A stretch of 44,099 nt of DNA from the sequence record OP087522.1. One strand, 5' to 3'. Below the pieces are notes generated by a model. That model was not told where the DNA came from. It was given only the letters and a program-made list of their open reading frames with translations, and made no database searches. Positions 1,447-34,733 of the stretch are shown here, in pieces. The translations under genes and the position numbers were made by a program. Each line of letters starts with the position of its first letter. Position 1 is the first letter of the stretch. The stretch is from Escherichia phage TR1.

Positions 1447-1581
1447 TTATAGTTCGTTAGAATGCGTTTTAGCATCGTCTACGGCTGCCGAAATAATGTA
1501 AATAATCGCGAAGCCCAGAGACCACAACAACCATGGTAAAGCCTCAACTAAAACCTCGTCAATCATAAGTTCCGTGTGCAT
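1447..1581 (-). CDS. hypothetical small membrane protein (about 44 aa, one predicted TM helix)
   Basis: Manual translation (MHTELMIDEVLVEALPWLLWSLGFAIIYIISAAVDDAKTHSNEL); hydrophobic core; GGAAA RBS-like sequence upstream. Confidence 0.3.
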   Translation of the reverse strand: MHTELMIDEVLVEALPWLLWSLGFAIIYIISAAVDDAKTHSNEL

Positions 1582-1591
1582 CTTGTTTTCC

Positions 1592-1771
1592 TTAAATCTT
1601 GTTCAATTGCTCAAGAATTTCGTAAGCCAGTTCTCTAGCTTGCTCTTCTGTTAAGTGGATGGTGTGAACTTGAGGTTCGTCACGCATTCCGCAAGCCTGA
1701 GCAATGATGAATGTTGCGTAGCCGTCGGAGTGGTTAGCCTGAAGTTTTGGTTCTGATTGTCGGAATCTCAT
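1592..1771 (-). CDS. hypothetical small protein (about 59 aa)
   Basis: Manual translation; ATGA start/stop overlap with gene 1768..1977. Confidence 0.3.
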   Translation of the reverse strand: MRFRQSEPKLQANHSDGYATFIIAQACGMRDEPQVHTIHLTEEQARELAYEILEQLNKI

Positions 1772-1977
1772 TCTTCAATTACCTCGTATTCGCCTTCTTG
1801 CAAACTAATCTCGTTGCCGATTGTTACTAAATCAGTATCACGAATCGCCTGAACTGATAAGCTACCATCTTTATACTTACCGGAAACATCAACAATATCA
1901 CCAACCTGGAAACCGCAATCAGCAAGGCTAAGTTCGTCACCATCAGCAATGTCAACTTCAATAATCTTGATTCTCAT
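1768..1977 (-). CDS. hypothetical acidic small protein (69 aa)
   Basis: ORF track; GGAG RBS before ATG; promoter cassette upstream (2009-2051); D/E-rich. Confidence 0.5.
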   Translation of the reverse strand: MRIKIIEVDIADGDELSLADCGFQVGDIVDVSGKYKDGSLSVQAIRDTDLVTIGNEISLQEGEYEVIEE

Positions 1978-2008
1978 CTCTATACTCCATCGTGTTGTCG
2001 ATGTGGTA

Positions 2009-2051
2009 ATTATGCCTGATTTCTCCGGCGATTGTTTAGCAATTCGTGCTA
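2009..2051 (-). promoter_or_regulatory. promoter cassette copy: palindrome TAGCA-ATTCG-TGCTA (2037-2051), 22-bp spacer, -10 CATAAT (2009-2014)
   Basis: Exact spacing measured in sequence; palindrome overlaps stop codon of gene 2049..2579. Confidence 0.55.
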
Positions 2052-2579
2052 TTGTCCATTCATGAGTAACTTAGCTTTCCTATAAAACTCCATCGCCACC
2101 TCAACCTCTTCCTCACTGTACCGCAAGTGGTATGGTAGTCTACTAGTGTGCTCACCTTCGTATACTTTGAGGTTAGGTTCCCATCTCTCCTCTAGGATTG
2201 CGGGATGAACGTAAACCCTATCGCCAATTAGACATGTAAGATTCATCTTGTCGAGTTCTGGAATAAGCTCATCTTTAATGCGTGCAAATAGGCCAATTTC
2301 TCGCCCAACAAATGGCTTCAACTTGCGCACGCCTTCGTATATGGATTTAACCACGAACACACCTTTCCCGTGCCTTCCCATTCTCCTAATGACTTTAATG
2401 AGCACAGCAAGCTCACTACCTTCGTAGATTGACGACGCATCAGGCTTACCCCAAAATACCTGGGCTTGTCGATACCCGTTCTCATTGATTGCTACTCGTA
2501 GCGGAGGTAAACCATCTTTTTCTGCGATTTCAATTACCCGCTCATCTGTCAGTTTATCTTCGGTGAAATCAAACATCAT
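2049..2579 (-). CDS. hypothetical protein, internally deleted paralog of the 527-aa protein at 5233..6816
   Basis: N-terminus (FDFxEDKL...LPPLRVAINxNGYRQ) and C-terminal block (GKxGKGV...RKxKPF...RIKDxLxPxLDxxNxTCLIGD) align to the ends of the 527-aa ORF; central region absent. Confidence 0.6.
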   Translation of the reverse strand: MMFDFTEDKLTDERVIEIAEKDGLPPLRVAINENGYRQAQVFWGKPDASSIYEGSELAVLIKVIRRMGRHGKGVFVVKSIYEGVRKLKPFVGREIGLFARIKDELIPELDKMNLTCLIGDRVYVHPAILEERWEPNLKVYEGEHTSRLPYHLRYSEEEVEVAMEFYRKAKLLMNGQ

Positions 2580-3124
2580 TTAGCCTCCTTAATCATTTCC
2601 TGGTATGCAGATAGTGCGAGCAGGGCACCTTCAAGTTTTTCACCACTCAAGTGGATAATGCTCGGGGTGACTGCCAAAAGTCGTTTCTTGAATCTCTCAA
2701 TGGTAGCCGCCTCTTTATCAGCTTCCTGTTTCTTCTTCTCCCGATTGCCAGTCCAGTGCGCTCCGTTCTCAATATATATAACAAGGTACTTATCAGCGCC
2801 GTCGCCATCAAATTGCCTTGCGTTTGTCTGCTCCCCTTCGTCATCAATCCAGATAAACTTGTATCGCGCCCTCTTGTTTGCGTCTCGCAAGTCCGTCATT
2901 CGTGACACAGTGTTGTAGATGTATGAGTTCTTAAGCTCAGGTAATGACCTGTCTGCCAAATTTAATATCTCATCTGTTTCGGTGTCATACTCCATTTCCG
3001 GGTACGACCTTCCGCGAATCATTTTGAATATCTGGCTGACTGGAACCTTAAACTCACCACTTTCCGATTCCATCGCCTTTCGTACCATCTCACGGATAAC
3101 TTCACCAAGCGTTACTTTCTGCAT
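2576..3124 (-). CDS. hypothetical early protein (182 aa)
   Basis: ORF track; first gene of leftward transcription unit leaving the 3125-3827 control region. Confidence 0.55.
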   Translation of the reverse strand: MQKVTLGEVIREMVRKAMESESGEFKVPVSQIFKMIRGRSYPEMEYDTETDEILNLADRSLPELKNSYIYNTVSRMTDLRDANKRARYKFIWIDDEGEQTNARQFDGDGADKYLVIYIENGAHWTGNREKKKQEADKEAATIERFKKRLLAVTPSIIHLSGEKLEGALLALSAYQEMIKEAK

Positions 3125-3316
3125 TTCAAATACCTCGTTGTTGTGTGCTGCGTTTCAGTGATTACCATAGTGCCAGTGATTTACGTGTCGGTCAATGTAT
3201 ATTTTAGTATATTTCATCATAGATACGCTTTTTATCCATAGCAGCCCTATCTGCACTGGATGTAACCTTGCTGTATCCGCTGTGTACAGTTTTTCGAGGT
3301 AATTTCCTATATATGT

Positions 3317-3357
3317 GCCTTTTTGTTCTGACAAGTGTCATCCTATTCTGACAAGTG
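3317..3357. promoter_or_regulatory. tandem operator-like palindromes (TTCTGACAAGTGTCA; second copy a perfect 18-bp palindrome TTCTGACAAGTGTCAGAA), 23 bp centre-to-centre
   Basis: Direct reading: two copies at 3317-3331 and 3340-3357. Confidence 0.5.
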
Positions 3358-3397
3358 TCAGAATATAACAGAGGAATATATCAACTATTTCATCTAT

Positions 3398-3470
3398 GAG
3401 CGGTATACACAGTATACATATAATAATAATAATAATAATAATAAAGAAGAAGTATATATATATTATATAC
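3398..3470. repeat. repeat element with (AAT/TAA)8 microsatellite and flanking TATACACAGTA / ATATATAT blocks; second copy at 22843-22905
   Basis: Microsatellite 3421-3444; aligned by eye to 22843-22905, which has 5 units. Confidence 0.6.
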
Positions 3471-3639
3471 TTATAGTGTATATCCAGTGTATATGTCGCG
3501 TAAAAACCGTAGGTTAGTGGTCACTTACTTTTATGACCACACTGAGTATACATTAGTTACACGTATACAGGAAATGGTCCAGCCAGAATCAAAATCAACT
3601 TGTATGGTAGTCCATCCACCATTCATTCACCATCACATC

Positions 3640-3742
3640 AATAATTGCAAATTCTGCAACAATCAAAAACATCATTGCATCAGATGCAATATTGCTATAT
3701 GTGCAATAATGAGATGAATCATTGCAATAACTGCAATAATAC
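3640..3742. repeat. iteron-like cluster of at least 7 TGCAAT(AA) / ATCATTGCA repeats
   Basis: Direct reading of repeated 6-9-mers within about 100 bp of non-coding DNA. Confidence 0.5.
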
Positions 3743-3766
3743 ATAAACCCAACGAATAGCACTTTT

Positions 3767-3810
3767 TGCTAATGACATTCATTGGCGGCGGGACCATAAT
3801 GAATCCATCA
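3767..3810 (+). promoter_or_regulatory. promoter cassette copy (plus orientation): palindrome TAGCA-CTTTT-TGCTA (3767-3781), 23-bp spacer, -10 CATAAT (3805-3810)
   Basis: Same architecture as minus-strand copies; leader CCATCAACAACGAGGAGAG then ATG at 3828. Confidence 0.5.
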
Positions 3811-3827
3811 ACAACGAGGAGAGAGAT

Positions 3828-4025
3828 ATGAAACTTAAAGACGAAGCGTATGAGCAGCTAAAGCAGGAATGCGCTCTGATTGGGTTGAACGAGATGTACA
3901 GCGATATGGTTTTGCGCGGCAAGATTGATATTGACCTCGCTAAGCAATTCCAGTCAGATGATGAGTATCTATGTTGTGATGGCTTGGGCTGTGACGAATG
4001 TTTACCCTGGCAAGGAATGAGATGA
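3828..4025 (+). CDS. hypothetical small protein (65 aa, Cys-rich C-terminus)
   Basis: ORF track; GAGGAG RBS upstream. Confidence 0.5.
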   Translation: MKLKDEAYEQLKQECALIGLNEMYSDMVLRGKIDIDLAKQFQSDDEYLCCDGLGCDECLPWQGMR

Positions 4026-4216
4026 TGAAAGTTAAGTGCTTAAATAATCTTAATGATGGAACCTGGGAATTTAGAAACGGAAAGCATTACATTTATGATG
4101 AAATGTATGGTTACGTAGTTGGTGACAACTTCAAACCAGTTTACTGCTACATTGATGATGAACGTGTCATTGCAGCAATTAAAAATAGGCTTATTTTTGA
4201 AACAGTAGAAGGTTAG
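4022..4216 (+). CDS. hypothetical small protein (start at ATGATG overlapping upstream stop)
   Basis: ORF track 3998..4216; start adjusted to 4022 for coupling. Confidence 0.4.
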   Translation: MMKVKCLNNLNDGTWEFRNGKHYIYDEMYGYVVGDNFKPVYCYIDDERVIAAIKNRLIFETVEG

Positions 4217-4217
4217 C

Positions 4218-4421
4218 ATGAAGCTACTTTGCACCAATATCATTAAAGACTTTAACGACGCGTTCAATAAGGGCTCTGAATACAACGCTACCGATTTCAA
4301 AGATGACATGTGCCTTGTTACCGGAGAGCGTCCACATAAGCATCACGACAAGTTTCAGGCTCTTAAATGCCTTGATTACGTCGTCATCCCAGGCATCGCA
4401 ACTTTTAAGGTGATTGAATAA
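4218..4421 (+). CDS. hypothetical small protein (67 aa)
   Basis: ORF track; tightly packed after previous gene. Confidence 0.45.
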   Translation: MKLLCTNIIKDFNDAFNKGSEYNATDFKDDMCLVTGERPHKHHDKFQALKCLDYVVIPGIATFKVIE

Positions 4422-4582
4422 TGCTATTACCATCTGAGATTAACTATTTTGATCTGGAAGTTATTAGTTCTTACAGCGGCAAGGGCTGGCCTTGCGGGGA
4501 ATGGTTCAACGAGGACTTGCTTGAATCTCACGAGATTATGCTTAAGGCGATTGAGAAGGCGAGAAATAGCACGAATTGCTAA
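4421..4582 (+). CDS. hypothetical small protein (about 53 aa)
   Basis: Manual translation (MLLPSEINYFDLEVISSYSGKGWPCGEWFNEDLLESHEIMLKAIEKARNSTNC); stop TAA lies in promoter palindrome. Confidence 0.3.
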   Translation: MLLPSEINYFDLEVISSYSGKGWPCGEWFNEDLLESHEIMLKAIEKARNSTNC

Positions 4583-4609
4583 AGCCCTTCGGGGCTTTTG
4601 TTGTATAGT
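4567..4609 (+). promoter_or_regulatory. promoter cassette copy with embedded hairpin: palindrome TAGCA-CGAAT-TGCTA (4567-4581), spacer containing GCCCTTCGGGGC hairpin, -10 TATAGT (4604-4609), leader CATCGAAACGAAA
   Basis: 22-bp spacing measured; hairpin plus T-run in the spacer may double as a terminator for the upstream gene. Confidence 0.5.
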
Positions 4610-4641
4610 TTCCTCATCGAAACGAAAGAGAACAAGTAATC

Positions 4642-4806
4642 ATGTTTGACAACTTTTACGACGCGATGGAAGAGGCAGTTTTCAGGGCCTCGCTTGATGG
4701 AAAGATTTACGGTTTAGTTCAGAAAGTTGATAAGATTGTTGTGCGTATCGTGCGCAAATCAGTACCAAACAAATTCATGTGGACTACAAAAGAGAGGGCT
4801 GAATAA
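4642..4806 (+). CDS. hypothetical small protein (about 54 aa)
   Basis: Manual translation (MFDNFYDAMEEAVFRASLDGKIYGLVQKVDKIVVRIVRKSVPNKFMWTTKERAE). Confidence 0.3.
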   Translation: MFDNFYDAMEEAVFRASLDGKIYGLVQKVDKIVVRIVRKSVPNKFMWTTKERAE

Positions 4807-5159
4807 TGACTACTACCATAACTAAAAATTTCATTAGCAAAGACAACCAACTGTTTAAAGCTCGCGTTAAAGATGGTGTCGAGCAAATCAAGAAAGATGG
4901 CAAATGGGTTAATCTGGAAGAACGTGGTAAATACATTAAGACCAGAACGCTTTACGTGACACATGTTAACCACAAATCTGGCGTTAAGAAGGATTTCAAA
5001 GAAGGAAAGAGATACCAGGTGCTAATGCATAGCGGGATGGGTCAGTCTGCTGGTTACATTTACGACGAAGATGGTAATGCATGGCAGCTATATCGAAGCG
5101 AAGATGTTGGTTTCTACACTCTTTGCCAGACTTACCTATTTGAATCATCTTACAAATAG
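4806..5159 (+). CDS. hypothetical protein (117 aa)
   Basis: ORF track; ATGA overlap with upstream gene. Confidence 0.5.
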   Translation: MTTTITKNFISKDNQLFKARVKDGVEQIKKDGKWVNLEERGKYIKTRTLYVTHVNHKSGVKKDFKEGKRYQVLMHSGMGQSAGYIYDEDGNAWQLYRSEDVGFYTLCQTYLFESSYK

Positions 5160-5232
5160 CAGCACGAATTGATAATGCATTATAAGCGGCTGTTGATATA
5201 ATGGCCGCTCAGAAACAATACGGAGAGAAGTA

Positions 5233-6816
5233 ATGTTTGATTTCAACGAAGATAAACTATCTGTTGAACAAGTTATGGCGATTGCCGCGACCGACAACCT
5301 CCCACCGCTTCGCGTGGCCATTAATGCAAATGGCTATCGGCAGTCTCAATCATTCTGGAAAACACCTGTGGAGATTGACGCAGGTAATGACAAGTACCCT
5401 GTAATATCTCTAGGCAATGACATTGATGTTGTTGGTAAGCTCTCGGCAAATATTGCTCGCTCAGTTCAGTTCCCAGAGTCATCAGCATACATGCACTTTT
5501 TGGGTTGTGTGTCCGCTGCGATGCTAGGGCGCTTTACTGTTGAGTATCACGGAACCCAGCAGCCAACATCGCTTTACGTGGTAACTAGCCAGCCGCCATC
5601 TACTGGTAAGTCAGCCATTAACTCTCTGTCAATTGCGCCAATGATTGCTGAGACTGAGCGTTTGAACGAGGTGCGTAAACGTGACCGCAAAAAGATTATG
5701 GCTAAGCTGTCTGCGCTAGCAAAAGAAATGAAACAGGAGAAGTCACCATCTGAGATGGCTTCACTGTTTGAGGAGAAGGAAGATTTAGAGGAAAAGCTCG
5801 AGAAGCTGTGCGATATCGTATTCCCGGTCTCAGATACTACGCCAGAAGGTCTTGCACGAATCAACAACCGCCAGGGTAACTTTGCGGTCATCTCGGATGA
5901 GGCAACAAGCGTCAACTCATTATTGGGCATGACATACGGTGATGGTTCCAAGAAAACGAACAGCGAGCTTGTACTTAAAGCGTGGGATGCTGGTAACGTA
6001 TCTATTGCCCGCGCTAACGCAGAAAACAACATGAGTTTCGTGGCAATGGGGTGCATCTCTGTAATTGCTCAGGATGAAACAATCAATGCGATTATGAATG
6101 CTGGTGCGCGTGGTATTGGTGTTTCCGAGCGTTTCCTTCTGGTGCGTGAAAAGTCATTTCTTGGAGACCGCGTGTTTGTTGATGAGAATGGCGATTCAAC
6201 ATACGAGGCTATTGATGGTGGTCTTAAGGCAGGCTATTTCCGTCTCGTTCATGAAATTATGAATGAAGTTGAAGTGAAACTGACAGTAAGTGCGTCATCC
6301 ATGCGCTACCTTAACCGAGCTCGCCAGGAAATGGAACCGCATCTTGGTGATGGCGGTAAATATTCCCACACGATGTTACGTGGTGCTCTTGGTAAATTTG
6401 ATAAGCAAGCAATCCGTATTGCCTCAGTATTGCACGTTATTCGCAACTGGTTCGCACCGGCAGGGTCGAGTCCGCAGAAATCAAGAGAGATTGAGCTTGA
6501 AACAATGCAAGAAGCGGTTATGATTTTCCACGAGTTAAGCAAGACTTATTTGTCGTCCGCTAGTGCTGCTGGTCATGCTGGTGATAATGCTGAAATGAAT
6601 AAGCTGGTTGATATCCTGATTAAGCAAGGTAAGAATGGGAAGGGTGTTGTTGGCGTTCGCTCACTGTATGAAGCAGCACGCAAAGTTAAACCTTTTGAAG
6701 GACAGGCTGGCGTAATGACTCGCATCAAGGACCACTTGGTTCCTATGCTTGATGAGAAAAACTATACATGCCTGATTGGTGATAAGATTTACATTAATCC
6801 GCGATTGTTGGGGTGA
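5233..6816 (+). CDS. large early protein with P-loop-like motif (VTSQPPSTGKS); function unknown, possibly replication-associated NTPase
   Basis: ORF track 527 aa; GGAGAGAAG RBS; motif read from translation; family assignment not verifiable without a search. Confidence 0.6.
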   Translation: MFDFNEDKLSVEQVMAIAATDNLPPLRVAINANGYRQSQSFWKTPVEIDAGNDKYPVISLGNDIDVVGKLSANIARSVQFPESSAYMHFLGCVSAAMLGRFTVEYHGTQQPTSLYVVTSQPPSTGKSAINSLSIAPMIAETERLNEVRKRDRKKIMAKLSALAKEMKQEKSPSEMASLFEEKEDLEEKLEKLCDIVFPVSDTTPEGLARINNRQGNFAVISDEATSVNSLLGMTYGDGSKKTNSELVLKAWDAGNVSIARANAENNMSFVAMGCISVIAQDETINAIMNAGARGIGVSERFLLVREKSFLGDRVFVDENGDSTYEAIDGGLKAGYFRLVHEIMNEVEVKLTVSASSMRYLNRARQEMEPHLGDGGKYSHTMLRGALGKFDKQAIRIASVLHVIRNWFAPAGSSPQKSREIELETMQEAVMIFHELSKTYLSSASAAGHAGDNAEMNKLVDILIKQGKNGKGVVGVRSLYEAARKVKPFEGQAGVMTRIKDHLVPMLDEKNYTCLIGDKIYINPRLLG

Positions 6817-6819
6817 TAG

Positions 6820-7155
6820 ATGTTTCTACTCGACGTATACAAGTTCTGCGAAGGATACAAGAACTTCAACCGCCAGCACCTGGCAAGATTCATCTACAAG
6901 CACAAGGATTGTGCAAGGATGGCTAAGGCCGCTGGAGTTGATGAAAGGTATTTTGCATCTAGTTGCTCGAAGGAGTTTATGGCGAGAATGCTTACGGCTG
7001 GTTATCTTGATGGAGTTAATGGCGTGTACTGGTCAAAGGGTTCAGGCAAGAGGACATTCCAGTTTGAGTTTATGAGCCTTGAAGGTAAGTCTAGTGCTTA
7101 TGTTAATGAGATGATGAATATAGCAACCATGAGTGACGAAGAATTGTTTGCATAA
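6820..7155 (+). CDS. hypothetical protein (111 aa)
   Basis: ORF track; followed by bidirectional terminator. Confidence 0.5.
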   Translation: MFLLDVYKFCEGYKNFNRQHLARFIYKHKDCARMAKAAGVDERYFASSCSKEFMARMLTAGYLDGVNGVYWSKGSGKRTFQFEFMSLEGKSSAYVNEMMNIATMSDEELFA

Positions 7156-7186
7156 AAATAGCCCCATTACGGGGCTTTTTTGTTTT
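7154..7186. terminator. bidirectional rho-independent terminator between convergent genes
   Basis: Hairpin GCCCCATTACGGGGC (7161-7175) flanked by A-run and T-run; overlaps the last codons of the spanin gene. Confidence 0.6.
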
Positions 7187-7553
7187 TCCTGAATATTACC
7201 AAAAGCAGAATGATGATGATGCACAACATAATTCCACTTCCAACCCACGGGATTGCAGAAGAATCATTGTTTGTGATTTCAATCTTCTCAGCTGTGATTG
7301 TTGACGCTTTGATTGAGTTATCAGAAGTCTTCTTACCGCTTGAGCTATCAAGAGTGTCAACATTAGAGTTCTTCAACTCAGCCTTTGCATTGGAACTTGA
7401 ATCAACCTTGTTTGTCAGACCTACGCCAACCTTATTGTTCTCCGCTCCAGCCTGGGCGCTAATCTCTGGCTTACTGCCAATCAATCCGGTCAGTGCTGAT
7501 GTTGCCGAACAACCAGAAAGCAGAATCACCGCAGCAATTAATACAACCTTCAT
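7167..7553 (-). CDS. unimolecular spanin (lipoprotein signal plus C-terminal TM anchor)
   Basis: N-terminal signal with lipobox LLSGC and C-terminal hydrophobic helix IMLCIIIILLLVIF in one 128-aa protein; sits last in the lysis cassette, as in T1-type phages. Confidence 0.65.
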   Translation of the reverse strand: MKVVLIAAVILLSGCSATSALTGLIGSKPEISAQAGAENNKVGVGLTNKVDSSSNAKAELKNSNVDTLDSSSGKKTSDNSIKASTITAEKIEITNNDSSAIPWVGSGIMLCIIIILLLVIFRKNKKAP

Positions 7554-9793: not shown

Positions 9794-9836
9794 AATATAC
9801 CCAGATTTCTCTGGGATTTATTAACAAAAAGTGCTA
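9794..9836 (-). promoter_or_regulatory. promoter cassette copy: palindrome TAACA-AAAAG-TGCTA (9822-9836), 22-bp spacer with hairpin, -10 TATATT (9794-9799)
   Basis: Measured in sequence. Confidence 0.5.
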
Positions 9837-9840
9837 TTTA

Positions 9841-12133: not shown

Positions 12134-12176
12134 ATAATACACCACTTCATCAATTCGTCTTTAGCAATTCGTGCTA
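12134..12176 (-). promoter_or_regulatory. promoter cassette copy: palindrome TAGCA-ATTCG-TGCTA (12162-12176), 22-bp spacer, -10 TATTAT (12134-12139) inside an inverted repeat
   Basis: Measured; palindrome overlaps stop of VRR-NUC gene. Confidence 0.55.
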
Positions 12177-12593
12177 TTTTCTAATCATCTCTGCGAATGC
12201 AGCAAGAAAACCATCTCTGCCGTAGGCAACTCCTGCGAAACCGCCTGATTCCCTTACGCTTTTTAGGAATGACTTTTGCTCATCACTTACTGGGCTAGCC
12301 TGTGTTTTCCCAGCCCTCTTTAGCTCTATTGCGCCAAATGGATAACTTCCTCGTAATGACTCAGGTATTAGAAATAGGCAGTCTGATACGCCTTTAAGAA
12401 GTCCTTTAGCCTGGTCTTTCCTTGCCTGACCAATGCTCTTCATTGATTCATTAACTGTGTGCCAGTAAACAACCTGCGGATAGTTATACTTAACCCAATC
12501 AGAGCAAAAGATTTGTTCGTCGTCTTCCTTCGGGCATGACTTCACCGGGCCGCCATAGAACTCGAGGTAGTCAGTTTTGTCTGTAACTTTCAT
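12174..12593 (-). CDS. VRR-NUC family nuclease
   Basis: Pattern ...DCLFLIPE...GAIELKRAGKTQ... consistent with PD-(D/E)xK VRR-NUC domain; adjacent to helicase. Confidence 0.5.
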   Translation of the reverse strand: MKVTDKTDYLEFYGGPVKSCPKEDDEQIFCSDWVKYNYPQVVYWHTVNESMKSIGQARKDQAKGLLKGVSDCLFLIPESLRGSYPFGAIELKRAGKTQASPVSDEQKSFLKSVRESGGFAGVAYGRDGFLAAFAEMIRK

Positions 12594-14625: not shown

Positions 14626-14667
14626 ATAATAACAGCCATCGAACCCATTGTTTAACAAAAAGTGCTA
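14626..14667 (-). promoter_or_regulatory. promoter cassette copy: palindrome TAACA-AAAAG-TGCTA (14653-14667), 21-bp spacer, extended -10 TGTTATTAT
   Basis: Measured. Confidence 0.5.
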
Positions 14668-14680
14668 TTGAGGTAATGAG

Positions 14681-15206: not shown

Positions 15207-15686
15207 ATGAACTGGCATGATTATTTTTACTATGTAGATGGCAAATTGCATTGGAAGATTAGCACTGCAAGACGTGTTAAGGTTGGCGATGAGTGCAACT
15301 CACTATCTACATCTGGCTATTACAAAGTGTCTGTTAATGGCTTTAGGACTTATGTACATAGAGTTGTGTGGGAGATGTTTAATGGAGAGCTTCAAAATGG
15401 CGACTACATTGATCATATAAACCATAACAAATTAGATAACAGAATAGAAAACCTAAGAGTAACAACAAATCAAGGTAACTCAAGAAATTGCAAGCTTAGC
15501 GTTTTATCAACAAATGGTTATTGTGGAGTGGCAAAGCTAAATCACGGAAAATTTAAGGCTCACATCAAGGTTGACGGCAAGCATCTACACCTTGGGAACT
15601 TCGATACTCCAGAGCAGGCGTATAAAGTAAGAATTGAAGCAGAGAGAAAATACAACTTTCACGAAAATCACGGGTTAAGCAAATGA
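15207..15686 (+). CDS. HNH-AP2 homing endonuclease (paralog family copy 1)
   Basis: MNWxDxFxY N-terminus, HRVVWE...DHINHNKLDNRIENLR HNH core, AP2-like GV...G.F.T.E.A C-terminal domain. Confidence 0.75.
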   Translation: MNWHDYFYYVDGKLHWKISTARRVKVGDECNSLSTSGYYKVSVNGFRTYVHRVVWEMFNGELQNGDYIDHINHNKLDNRIENLRVTTNQGNSRNCKLSVLSTNGYCGVAKLNHGKFKAHIKVDGKHLHLGNFDTPEQAYKVRIEAERKYNFHENHGLSK

Positions 15687-16606
15687 ATTACGATAAGAAT
15701 GAAGTTATACCTAAGATGGCCGGATTGTGGAAATCATTTTATGCAAAGGAACTTGGTTGGAATGATAGACACCTAAGTAAGAAGCACGGACCATGCCCAT
15801 ACTGCTTTGGCACTGACAGATTCAGATTTACCGACGAAATAGGCAGTGAAAAAGGAAATGGCGCGGCAGTTTGTTCGAAATGCGGAAGTGACTCCGGTAT
15901 AGGATGGGTCATGAAGTGCACTGGATCGTCCTTCGCCGATTCAGTAAATTTGCTTGGTGACTGGCTGAACTTAACACCAATTGAGGTTATAGTTAAAGCA
16001 AACAAGCAAGCATCAAGAACCCAGCTCTACAAAATGGGCGCACAGATTGATCACGAAAGATGCCTGGAGATAATGGAAAGGACTGAGAGAGTAGAATCTA
16101 CTCCACTCAGCATATACGAGGGTATTTATAGCGAGTTTGGTTTTGATGCTGGCAGGACAAAATCAGGCGAACTAATACACGCAGTGCCGTGCTTTATGGC
16201 TTATAGTGACGGCATATCAGAAGAAATGTGCAATGTAATGTTTATCAATGAAGAAGGGGGTGTTAGTTATGCTGCAAAAGATTATACTCGCCAGTCTATT
16301 GCTGTTATTGGCACCTTTAAAGATGATGAGTACGCTTATCTGGTCGATAATTGGATTGATGGTGTTCGCGTTCATCTTGCTACTGGCAAACGCTGTGTGC
16401 TTGTTTGCCACTCTAGCTACAACATGGAGATGGTTGCTTATGCGCTTAGAAACTACAAGCTGAGAGTGGCATGCAAGCTTGATAGGGAATTGCTTTGCGT
16501 TGCGGATGACAGGAACGTTGACGTGGTAATACCAAATGATGAATACTCATTCAAGAGCGGTATCAGGAAGAAGATATATAAAGCGAGTGATTTATTGAAT
16601 AGTTAA
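15683..16606 (+). CDS. DNA primase (zinc-ribbon CPYC...CSKC plus TOPRIM-like region)
   Basis: N-terminal Cys4 zinc-binding motif GPCPYCFGTDRFRF...CSKCG typical of phage primases; ATGA coupling with upstream HNH. Confidence 0.5.
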   Translation: MNYDKNEVIPKMAGLWKSFYAKELGWNDRHLSKKHGPCPYCFGTDRFRFTDEIGSEKGNGAAVCSKCGSDSGIGWVMKCTGSSFADSVNLLGDWLNLTPIEVIVKANKQASRTQLYKMGAQIDHERCLEIMERTERVESTPLSIYEGIYSEFGFDAGRTKSGELIHAVPCFMAYSDGISEEMCNVMFINEEGGVSYAAKDYTRQSIAVIGTFKDDEYAYLVDNWIDGVRVHLATGKRCVLVCHSSYNMEMVAYALRNYKLRVACKLDRELLCVADDRNVDVVIPNDEYSFKSGIRKKIYKASDLLNS

Positions 16607-16628: not shown

Positions 16629-16693
16629 TGCCTTAAAGATGCTACAATCCAAATTAGCAATTAGTGCTATTTTACAAATGGAGACTTTACACA

Positions 16694-20866: not shown

Positions 20867-20909
20867 ACTATACCTGAGCTATCCATTGTTGTTTTAGCAA
20901 TTTGTGCTA
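20867..20909 (-). promoter_or_regulatory. promoter cassette copy: palindrome TAGCA-ATTTG-TGCTA (20895-20909), 22-bp spacer, -10 TATAGT (20867-20872)
   Basis: Measured. Confidence 0.55.
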
Positions 20910-21385
20910 TTTCCGTGATTTCTATGAAATCCCAACTTAACCTCTTCGCTTTTTCTTGCTCTAGCGGCTTCCTCGATTGAGTCAAAACACCCAATGTGAT
21001 ACTCGTAACCATCCACACCCATTCTTGCTACATATTTTGATAGCCTTGGCACCCAACTAACACCCAGAACTCCGGTTTTGTTTGTTTTTCTCAATGACTG
21101 ATTCATGGCATTTCCTTGCCTATTCACCAATCGCAAGTTCTCAATCCTGTTATCATTTCTAATGTGATTTATGTGATCAACAAATAAACCACTAGGTATT
21201 TTACCATTTACGATATCCCATATAATTCTGTGAACCTTGTGCTCCCTGCCATCGTACCTCAACCTTACATAACCGTTAGTCTTACTTACATTTCCAGCAA
21301 CTTTACCAATGCAACCTCTAGTTCCGCTCATTATCTTCCATATCAAATTAACCCCATCGTAATCAAAAATTTCAGACCAGTTCAT
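20894..21385 (-). CDS. HNH-AP2 homing endonuclease (paralog family copy 2)
   Basis: MNWSEIFDY..., HRIIWD...DHINHIRNDNRIENLR, AP2-like GVSW...GCFDSIEEAARAR. Confidence 0.75.
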   Translation of the reverse strand: MNWSEIFDYDGVNLIWKIMSGTRGCIGKVAGNVSKTNGYVRLRYDGREHKVHRIIWDIVNGKIPSGLFVDHINHIRNDNRIENLRLVNRQGNAMNQSLRKTNKTGVLGVSWVPRLSKYVARMGVDGYEYHIGCFDSIEEAARARKSEEVKLGFHRNHGNSTNC

Positions 21386-34686: not shown

Positions 34687-34729
34687 ACTATACAGCAACC
34701 CACGGCTTAGTCTTTAACAAAAAGTGCTA
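34687..34729 (-). promoter_or_regulatory. promoter cassette copy: palindrome TAACA-AAAAG-TGCTA (34715-34729), 22-bp spacer, -10 TATAGT (34687-34692), leader CATCGAAACGAAA
   Basis: Measured. Confidence 0.55.
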
Positions 34730-34733
34730 TTAA

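Follow-up and report, generated by a model that had tools for sequence, protein, structure and literature searches.

Replication helicases of the DUF3987 family are MCM-like AAA+ motors of helicase superfamily 6 (SF6). The winged helix-turn-helix of the family has been described (PMC4889955), and a 5'-3' helicase activity has been measured for a PriCT-DUF3987 protein (PMC11724360). Here we analyze the 44,099-nt sequence OP087522.1 ("the window"), the complete or near-complete genome of Escherichia phage TR1, a T1-like siphovirus (Drexlerviridae, Braunvirinae). It encodes a 527-amino-acid (aa) helicase of this family (open reading frame [ORF] 5233..6816, plus strand; "the helicase") and, on the minus strand, a far shorter relative of it (ORF 2049..2579; "the mini"). 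Its sequence shows the mini to be a paralog of this phage's MCM-like (DUF3987/SF6) replication helicase that is non-catalytic and carries an internal deletion.

Shortened relatives of viral and transposon proteins are known from other systems. OBPC (UL8.5) of herpes simplex virus 1 (HSV-1) corresponds to the C-terminal part of UL9, an origin-binding helicase, with which it shares DNA binding, and it has been proposed to be a UL9 competitor. It resembles the mini in being motorless and in sharing the ligand-binding domain of a viral initiator helicase, a likeness that for the mini is one of anatomy. OBPC, however, is an in-frame nested product of UL9 that comprises a C-terminal piece only, and UL9 belongs to SF2 and is not MCM-like, whereas the mini is a separate, diverged paralog on the opposite strand that keeps both termini and carries a new helix. 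The papillomavirus E2 repressors (E2-TR and E8^E2) and Tn5 Inh are shortened forms that antagonize the full-length protein. As in the mini, a binding or dimerization module is kept in the shortened form, but these proteins are made from the gene of the full-length protein through alternative starts or splicing, and a helicase paralog formed by internal deletion is not among them.

Among the DUF3987 SF6 helicases themselves (phrog_2373; for instance AgaPH, the N4 dns-type proteins and the T1-family 'DNA helicase'), that of TR1 is homologous to the mini at both ends and shares its predicted fold there; it differs in that the AAA+ core is present, the terminal helix is absent, as it is from all helicases, and evolution is 5 to 10 times slower. 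The family to which the mini belongs, phrog_7327 (ACLAME 1084; SU57_0002, bas01_0066, phiEB49 gp73 and Jk06 JK_55P), has the same synteny as the TR1 gene, with no difference in kind. It is already catalogued as 'unknown function' or 'hypothetical'; what is new is its helicase origin and its architecture. We found no description of the mini-helicase relation in the literature on DUF3987, Drexlerviridae, Braunvirinae and T1 replication.

Results

The mini gene lies 2.65 kb from the helicase gene on the opposite strand and is a separate gene, not a nested or alternative-start product. BLASTP aligned the two proteins in two blocks. Mini residues 2-46 (numbered here and below on the 176-aa version) match helicase residues 1-45 with 31 of 45 identical (E=9e-20), and mini residues 53-129 match helicase residues 451-526 with 36 identities and 57 positives over 77 positions (E=1e-23). 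An earlier note on this DNA had proposed that the short ORF is made of the two ends of the long one, and the similarity is indeed significant at both ends, although the count of about 29 of 45 given there for the N-terminal block was slightly low. The missing center, put there at roughly 350 residues, is about 405 residues long (helicase 46-450). It includes the whole DUF3987 domain and, as had been claimed, the P-loop motif PPSTGKS, which is the Walker A motif (helicase residues 121-127, nt 5593-5613, plus strand) and is invariant in our alignment. The tail of the mini (residues 130-176) had no counterpart in the helicase by BLASTP; it is thus unique, as had been stated, but measures 47 rather than 50 aa. 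Profile searches linked the two proteins in both directions, with the mini matching the phrog_2373 'DNA helicase' profile (E=1e-22) and the helicase matching the phrog_7327 profile (E=5e-55).

The helicase is the parent-type gene. Its Pfam DUF3987 domain (PF13148) spans residues 81-432 (E=6e-40); an N module (residues 1-45, nt 5233-5367) of three short helices (11-21, 25-33 and 36-41) stands ahead of the motor, and a winged helix (residues 451-526, nt 6583-6810), homologous to mini residues 53-129, closes the protein. This picture agrees with that of Kazlauskas et al. and with the activity reported in PMC11724360. The C-terminal block common to the mini and the helicase is therefore the helicase's winged helix.

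We modeled the mini with AlphaFold2 (AF2) from a 61-sequence alignment, at a predicted local distance difference test score (pLDDT) of 83.6 and a predicted template modeling score (pTM) of 0.70. The N module (residues 2-46; 2442..2576, minus strand) begins with a disordered MFDF-EDKL stretch followed by helices at 12-22, 26-34 and 37-42, with a pLDDT of about 90. Next comes a canonical winged helix (residues 53-129; 2193..2423, minus strand), with helix 56-70, strand 74-76, helices 77-84 and 97-111, and strands 115-118 and 121-124. The two are predicted to pack as one compact unit. The N module of the mini is net acidic (net charge -1 to -3), and the winged helix is basic in both the mini and the helicase (pI 9.1-9.5, the mini being at about 9.5). 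The rest is a family-specific tail (residues 130-176; 2052..2192, minus strand), in which a variable linker, modeled with low confidence at about residues 140-150, leads to a conserved terminal amphipathic helix (residues 156-173; nt 2061-2114, minus strand). Its motif, YSEEEVEvAmEFYRKAKlL, is without counterpart in any helicase.

By homology to helicase residues 451-526 and by topology, then, the mini has the winged helix typical of DUF3987/SF6 helicases. It does not have the AAA+ core: there is no Pfam DUF3987 match, the alignment skips helicase residues 46-450, and the model contains no P-loop fold. Without the AAA+ core, the Walker A and B motifs and the lid, the mini cannot be a helicase. 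As judged from alignment and model, the mini has lost the entire AAA+ motor, kept the acidic N module and the basic winged helix, and gained the terminal helix.

Both proteins start with an invariant acidic-aromatic stretch, MF(D/N)F-x-E/D-D/E-K-L (mini, 2550-2576, minus strand; helicase, 5233-5262), that is predicted to be disordered. This shared start has the look of a short linear motif for interaction, and the peptide recalls the acidic-aromatic C-terminal tip of SSB.

All matches in a structure search of BFVD with the mini were to members of its family or to fragments of helicases, none of them an annotated analogue, and whole-protein searches gave no match in PDB sequences or NCBIfam. 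The BFVD model of a 140-aa product from phage DTL superposes on the N module and winged helix of the mini with a root mean square deviation of 1.5 Å over 141 columns. The winged helices of MCM, ORC, Cdc6 and kleisins are structural neighbors of that of the mini, but at 7-16% identity the likeness is fold-generic and is no evidence of shared partners. The 'HEPN domain-containing protein' label given in GenBank to the ortholog of phage UDF157lw (L004 1036-1596) is unsupported by profile and fold searches; other labels in the same record ('30S ribosomal protein S24e', 'transposase' and 'fusion protein', on ORFs of ~40-100 aa) look unreliable too.

In neighbor-joining trees of both blocks, the minis fall inside the helicase tree and diverge later than the helicases of mini-less phages, which are 58-72% identical, split off. 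This is consistent with a single duplication and an internal deletion in the mini-bearing lineage. One candidate source of the tail was a 111-aa gene (phrog_2794; 6814-7155) that shares the reading frame of the helicase and starts one codon beyond its stop, an arrangement kept in most relatives. The idea came from tblastn alignments in two genomes (L013 and L022) that continued beyond the helicase stop. We rejected it, as an hhalign comparison of the tails with phrog_2794 orthologs gave a probability of 0.4% and E=0.15.

The mini matches the phrog_7327 profile over its full length (E=4.1e-68; residues 2-176 against profile positions 1-179 of 179) and so belongs to this family. Among the 120 best clusters (90% identity) from 5.8 billion proteins, lengths run from 160 to 187 aa, with 108 clusters at 173-177 aa, and few segments are as well conserved as the tail (YEGEHxSRLPYHLRYSEEEVExAxEFYRKAK). 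When 1.84 billion representatives were searched with a profile, there were only 51 matches, made up of about 10 full-length clusters at 50% identity, fragments, and helicase C termini. To judge from these searches, this is a small family that does not extend beyond T1-like phages. Divergent minis (36-40% identity) keep the architecture with a variable linker, and the terminal-helix motif is found in all of them, roughly as (Y/H)xxxEVxxA-h-x-h-(Y/W)(R/Q)xxKxL. The best match of the TR1 mini is 69% identical among isolates and 91% identical in metagenomes. Relatives do carry both genes: about 110 of the 748 isolate records with the helicase also have the mini, and these span Braunvirinae, Rogunavirinae and Nouzillyvirus. 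In the isolate records, T1-type Tunavirinae and Klebsiella phages have the helicase without the mini.

In every genome or contig examined, including the most divergent, the mini gene comes directly after a DUF7174 gene with an overlapping stop and start, and it lies opposite the helicase operon wherever the contig is long enough. In TR1, the DUF7174 gene (2576..3124, minus strand; 182 aa, phrog_4841, PF23796 at E=2e-47) is the first gene of the leftward early unit, and its TGA stop (2576-2578) overlaps the ATG codons of the mini, as it does in all relatives. The Shine-Dalgarno sequence of the mini, AGGAGG (2584..2589, minus strand), was read inside the last codons of the DUF7174 gene. Because MF(D/N)F opens every ortholog as well as the helicase, and AGGAGG lies 7 nt upstream, the true start of the mini is likely the second ATG, at 2576 (MFDF...), giving 175 aa rather than the 176 aa counted from the ATG at 2579. 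This arrangement points to translational coupling between DUF7174 and the mini, which together head an early operon running away from that of the helicase. The operon of the helicase, in which it is a late gene, runs rightward and starts at 3828, and the mini and the helicase genes belong one to each of two early operons diverging from 3125-3827. The earlier note had the two genes sitting on opposite strands on either side of this region; the strands are as described, but the mini does not abut the region, the DUF7174 gene lying between. At its 3' boundary, the DUF7174-mini unit has a copy of a 17-nt Drexlerviridae intergenic element, ATAGCACNNNTTGNTAA (2036..2052, minus strand), which overlaps the mini stop codon.

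The ratio of nonsynonymous to synonymous divergence (dN/dS) was estimated by the Nei-Gojobori method from pairs with unsaturated dS, with the helicase taken from the same genome pairs. It was ~0.14-0.25 for the mini and 0.02-0.04 for the helicase; selection on the mini is therefore purifying, but 5 to 10 times looser than on the helicase. Among mini-bearing phages, the terminal blocks of the helicase are 90-93% identical, and those of the mini are 66% (N) and 55% (C) identical. Along with full-length membership in phrog_7327, conserved length and tail, and synteny, these ratios show a selected gene and bear out the earlier view that the mini is not a decayed pseudogene. That it might prove to be a pseudogene in relatives is true in part. 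In a survey of mini alleles across 26 lineages, 6 carry independent nonsense or frameshift alleles and 1 (L023) has no mini, with other small genes in its place; in TR1 and in more than 100 clusters the reading frame is intact.

The disrupted alleles have a stop at codon 142 in vB_EcoS-12210I, at codon 143 in DTL, and near codon 38 in CEB_EC3a; a stop and a frameshift in IME542; two stops in OzMSK/Msk; and, in the clade of TR2, TR3, CY1 and Rao1, a TAG at codon 12, which was seen in TR2 and Rao1, with a second stop in Rao1. TR3 and CY1 were put in this lineage by equal tblastn identity, and their sequences were not read. The TR1 mini is thus intact where its nearest relatives TR2 and Rao1 carry a dead allele. 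Given the six disrupted lineages and the one without the gene, the mini is accessory, and dispensable in culture and laboratory hosts. In 12210I (L003 6004-6531) and DTL (L008 8004-8525), the adjacent-codon stops remove the tail helix only and leave a 140/141-aa product with the N module and winged helix; the tail downstream is still in frame, and that of DTL matches the consensus perfectly. The adjacent stops could reflect coincidence, recent laboratory selection against tail function, or read-through.

Over 1500-7200, the window is 99% identical to Escherichia phage Rao1 and ~96% identical to TR2, TR3 and CY1 (Christensenvirus), one replaced segment aside. In comparison with TR2 (L001), this segment is a ~1.4-kb cassette (~2160-3594) between flanks that are 100% identical, and it covers the bulk of the mini together with DUF7174 and two-thirds of the control region, on its left side; TR2 and Rao1 carry the dead allele there. 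Between TR1 and TR2, dS is 0.006 for the helicase and 0.86 for the mini. The left breakpoint falls inside the mini, at the linker between winged helix and tail, and the right one falls at the edge of the conserved intergenic block. The TR1 allele is itself recombinant, its N module and winged helix coming from another lineage and its tail from the Christensenvirus lineage; in L012, FP and OzMSK, too, the N module and winged helix of one mini type are joined to the tail of another. DUF7174 proteins are 27-96% identical among relatives, DUF7174 types assort independently of mini types, and the DUF7174 gene is itself mosaic. Taken as a whole, the comparisons describe a selected, fast-evolving, mosaic and dispensable gene.

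Between the mini and its own helicase, synonymous sites were saturated in 6 of 6 genomes tested, and nucleotide identity of the blocks was 51-67%. Recent gene conversion between the two is ruled out by these values; older events may have occurred. In one genome, L033, whose helicase is 82% identical overall with differing end modules, 13 of 119 aligned positions hold a residue that is private to the mini and its own helicase, compared with 0-2 in any non-cognate pair of mini and helicase. Examples are NGMRY for NGYRQ, AGKGFVSLR for NGKGVVGVR, and CMIxxRVY for CLIGDKIY, and the private residues are written with different synonymous codons in the two genes. For this one genome, the matching indicates either old gene conversion or co-evolution of matching surfaces. 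As for more divergent pairs, five contigs (P0244, P0245, P0251, P0253 and P0275) end short of the helicase, and there is no isolate genome of those types.

The window has the usual T1-type layout, with terminase and structural genes, a lysis cassette, Erf and exonuclease VIII for recombination, a DnaG-type primase (15683..16606) and an SNF2-like helicase. The divergent early control region between the two operons (3125..3827) was examined by repeat and promoter scans and in a 10-phage alignment. It contains an (AAT)n run, (AAT)9 at 3421-3447, that is a simple repeat in 10 of 10 aligned phages; in the window it is flanked by GTATAC-rich imperfect inverted repeats, and about four G(C/T)GTA repeats follow at ~10-bp spacing (~3476-3512). 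The segment 3404-3512 looks like an origin, with an AT-rich unwinding element and iterons. Many GenBank records of relatives are linearized in this region, too. A conserved 200-bp non-coding block (3580-3780) carries TGCAA-type repeats that include a perfect palindrome, GCAATATTGC, and the best sigma-70-like promoter of the scan (3772-3800) is just downstream of it. The block is 78-96% identical at the nucleotide level in every phage with the window-type helicase (Braunvirinae, Rogunavirinae and Nouzillyvirus), and the rest of the intergenic region diverges; in phages with diverged helicases (L033, L028, L029 and L031) the block was undetectable save for a 24-nt element corresponding to ATAGCACNNNTTGNTAA. 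It may be an origin, or an enhancer or operator of the rightward early promoter at 3772-3800. An Rfam search of 1900-5300 gave one sub-threshold chance match, and there is thus no sign that the conserved block is a known RNA.

The ATAGCACNNNTTGNTAA element occurs in 16 copies in the window, compared with 1.5 expected, most of them between genes. Besides the copy at the mini stop codon, these include 3756-3772 and 4566-4582 on the plus strand and, on the minus strand, 9821-9837, 12161-12177, 14652-14668, 16654-16670, 20894-20910 and 34714-34730. The copies inspected (2036-2052 and 3756-3772) point along transcription. The 21-nt intergenic repeat of phage TLS, aaATAGCACnnnTTGnTAAAA, corresponds to this element, and promoter-like, enhancer or 'stoperator' roles have been considered for it (PMC11447400).

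Discussion

What might a motorless copy of the two ends of a helicase do? The reading that we favor, tentatively and at somewhat less than an even chance, is that the mini binds the ligand or ligands of the helicase's end modules and in this way influences either the recruitment of the helicase or initiation, in the simplest case by competition. Because the ligand-binding periphery is kept without the motor, we infer that the mini binds the same ligand or ligands as the helicase. We imagine that it would occupy what the N module and winged helix of the helicase otherwise hold. Given the basic winged helix, this might be nucleic acid, possibly the conserved TGCAA-repeat block or an origin; given the acidic N module, it might be a replisome or loading partner. 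Such occupancy would tune replication initiation or helicase loading, with the mini acting most simply as a competitor or negative modulator, and the terminal helix would add a function that the helicase lacks, such as dimerization or contact with a second partner. The non-essentiality of the mini, disrupted in 6 of 26 lineages and missing from another, fits a modulator. The roles put forward in the earlier note (competitor, regulator or decoy) all appear compatible with the anatomy of the mini.

Certainly, several observations weigh against our preferred reading. When the two blocks and the tail were searched separately against Pfam at E<=10, nothing usable was found and neither block was matched. 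The 'recognition' helix of the winged helix is acidic to neutral, and DNA binding by this domain is therefore not assured. No co-variation of mini and helicase is visible among phages with the common helicase (helicase blocks 90-93% identical, minis 55-66%), a comparison that is uninformative because these helicase blocks are nearly invariant. The signal of cognate matching thus rests on one genome, L033, in which old gene conversion, and not functional coupling, could lie behind the shared residues. Finally, genes for host interaction or counter-defence just as typically evolve fast, move as cassettes and are often lost.

A further reading, which we regard as unlikely, is one of co-evolution. 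The mini would be a trans-acting partner that co-evolves with the helicase end modules and binds the same origin element or loader as they do, or the helicase ring, serving as a switch that sets the time and place of helicase loading or as a decoy of those modules for a host sensor.

The features just listed as typical of host-interaction genes also bring up a role in counter-defence or host takeover, in which the mini would mimic the helicase end modules, either as a decoy for an immune sensor or by sequestering a shared host replication factor. The benefit of such a factor would depend on the host strain, and repeated, independent loss of the mini in isolates grown on laboratory hosts would be understandable. 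The mini heads an early operon full of tiny accessory ORFs, and it evolves 5 to 10 times faster than the helicase. The cassette that replaces the TR2 version between identical flanks, with its contrast in dS between mini and helicase, and the shuffling of DUF7174, N-module-plus-winged-helix and tail types among genomes are also what one might expect of a host-directed gene. However, the mini had no match at E<=0.01 to the PADLOC defense and counter-defense models, nor to any known anti-defense family. A mimic should also track what it mimics, yet the C block of the mini is 26-55% identical among phages whose helicases are 93% identical. To our knowledge, no sensor targeting DUF3987 helicases has been described. 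We consider a host-directed role doubtful, if worth keeping in mind.

Could the mini instead help the helicase? ORC and Cdc6 recruit MCM through winged-helix contacts, and papillomavirus E2 recruits E1; by analogy, the mini might be a positive loader or origin marker that binds the origin or the helicase via the shared modules and recruits or assembles the helicase. The helicase is MCM-like, and in MCM, ORC and Cdc6 it is the winged-helix domains that make contacts for loading. The residue matching in L033 would suit such a partnership, as would the placing of both genes in early operons. But most Drexlerviridae with the same helicase do without a mini, as the ~110 of 748 records indicate, and the six lineages with a broken copy and the one with none still replicate. 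The mini is therefore not a required loader, and a role of this kind seems to us quite unlikely.

We think it improbable that the mini is a transcriptional regulator, that is, that the DNA-binding modules of the helicase were put to use for repression or activation at the palindromes or repeats of the control region. The basic winged helix and the start of the mini operon at this region speak for it, as does a perfect, symmetric, operator-like palindrome at 3344-3365 (TATTCTGACA/TGTCAGAATA), near which a direct repeat of TTCTGACAAGTGTCA is also found (3315-3365). In the 10-phage alignment, variants of the palindrome keep their symmetry (TTCTGACA/TGTCAGAA versus TTCCTACA/TGTAGGAA); in P818 and L017 both arms are changed (TTCCTACA..TGTAGGAA), as expected for a dimeric operator. 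Nevertheless, the palindrome goes together with certain types of DUF7174, and L023 has it although it has no mini. It is with DUF7174 type and not with mini type that the left half of the control region co-varies, and the TGCAA block stays constant while minis diverge. DUF7174 is therefore the better candidate for binding the operator, and the pattern suggests that it may be a DNA-binding regulator of the leftward operon.

That the mini is merely a non-functional remnant of a duplicated helicase gene, still open in TR1 by chance, we hold to be very improbable: that 6 of 26 lineages have independent dead alleles, the closest relatives (with two stops in Rao1) among them, would fit, but this idea is contradicted by a dN/dS well below 1, by more than 100 distinct clusters that keep a frame of 173-177 aa, by a non-homologous tail that is among the most conserved segments, by the conserved Shine-Dalgarno sequence and stop/start coupling, and by an architecture that persists to ~36-40% identity.

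T1-like phages are common contaminants of laboratories and fermentations and are candidates for phage therapy, and the mini is a useful handle on how they initiate replication. By keeping exactly the peripheral modules of the helicase, a conserved paralog without a motor marks them as the functional interface, and it could serve as a natural tool in the search for their ligand. Should the mini indeed modulate helicase loading, it would be a new phage example of replication control by a truncated paralog. If it proved to be a co-evolving switch or decoy, it would be a natural 'periphery-only' helicase paralog with a gene of its own, and we know of no such regulatory device among phage replicative helicases.

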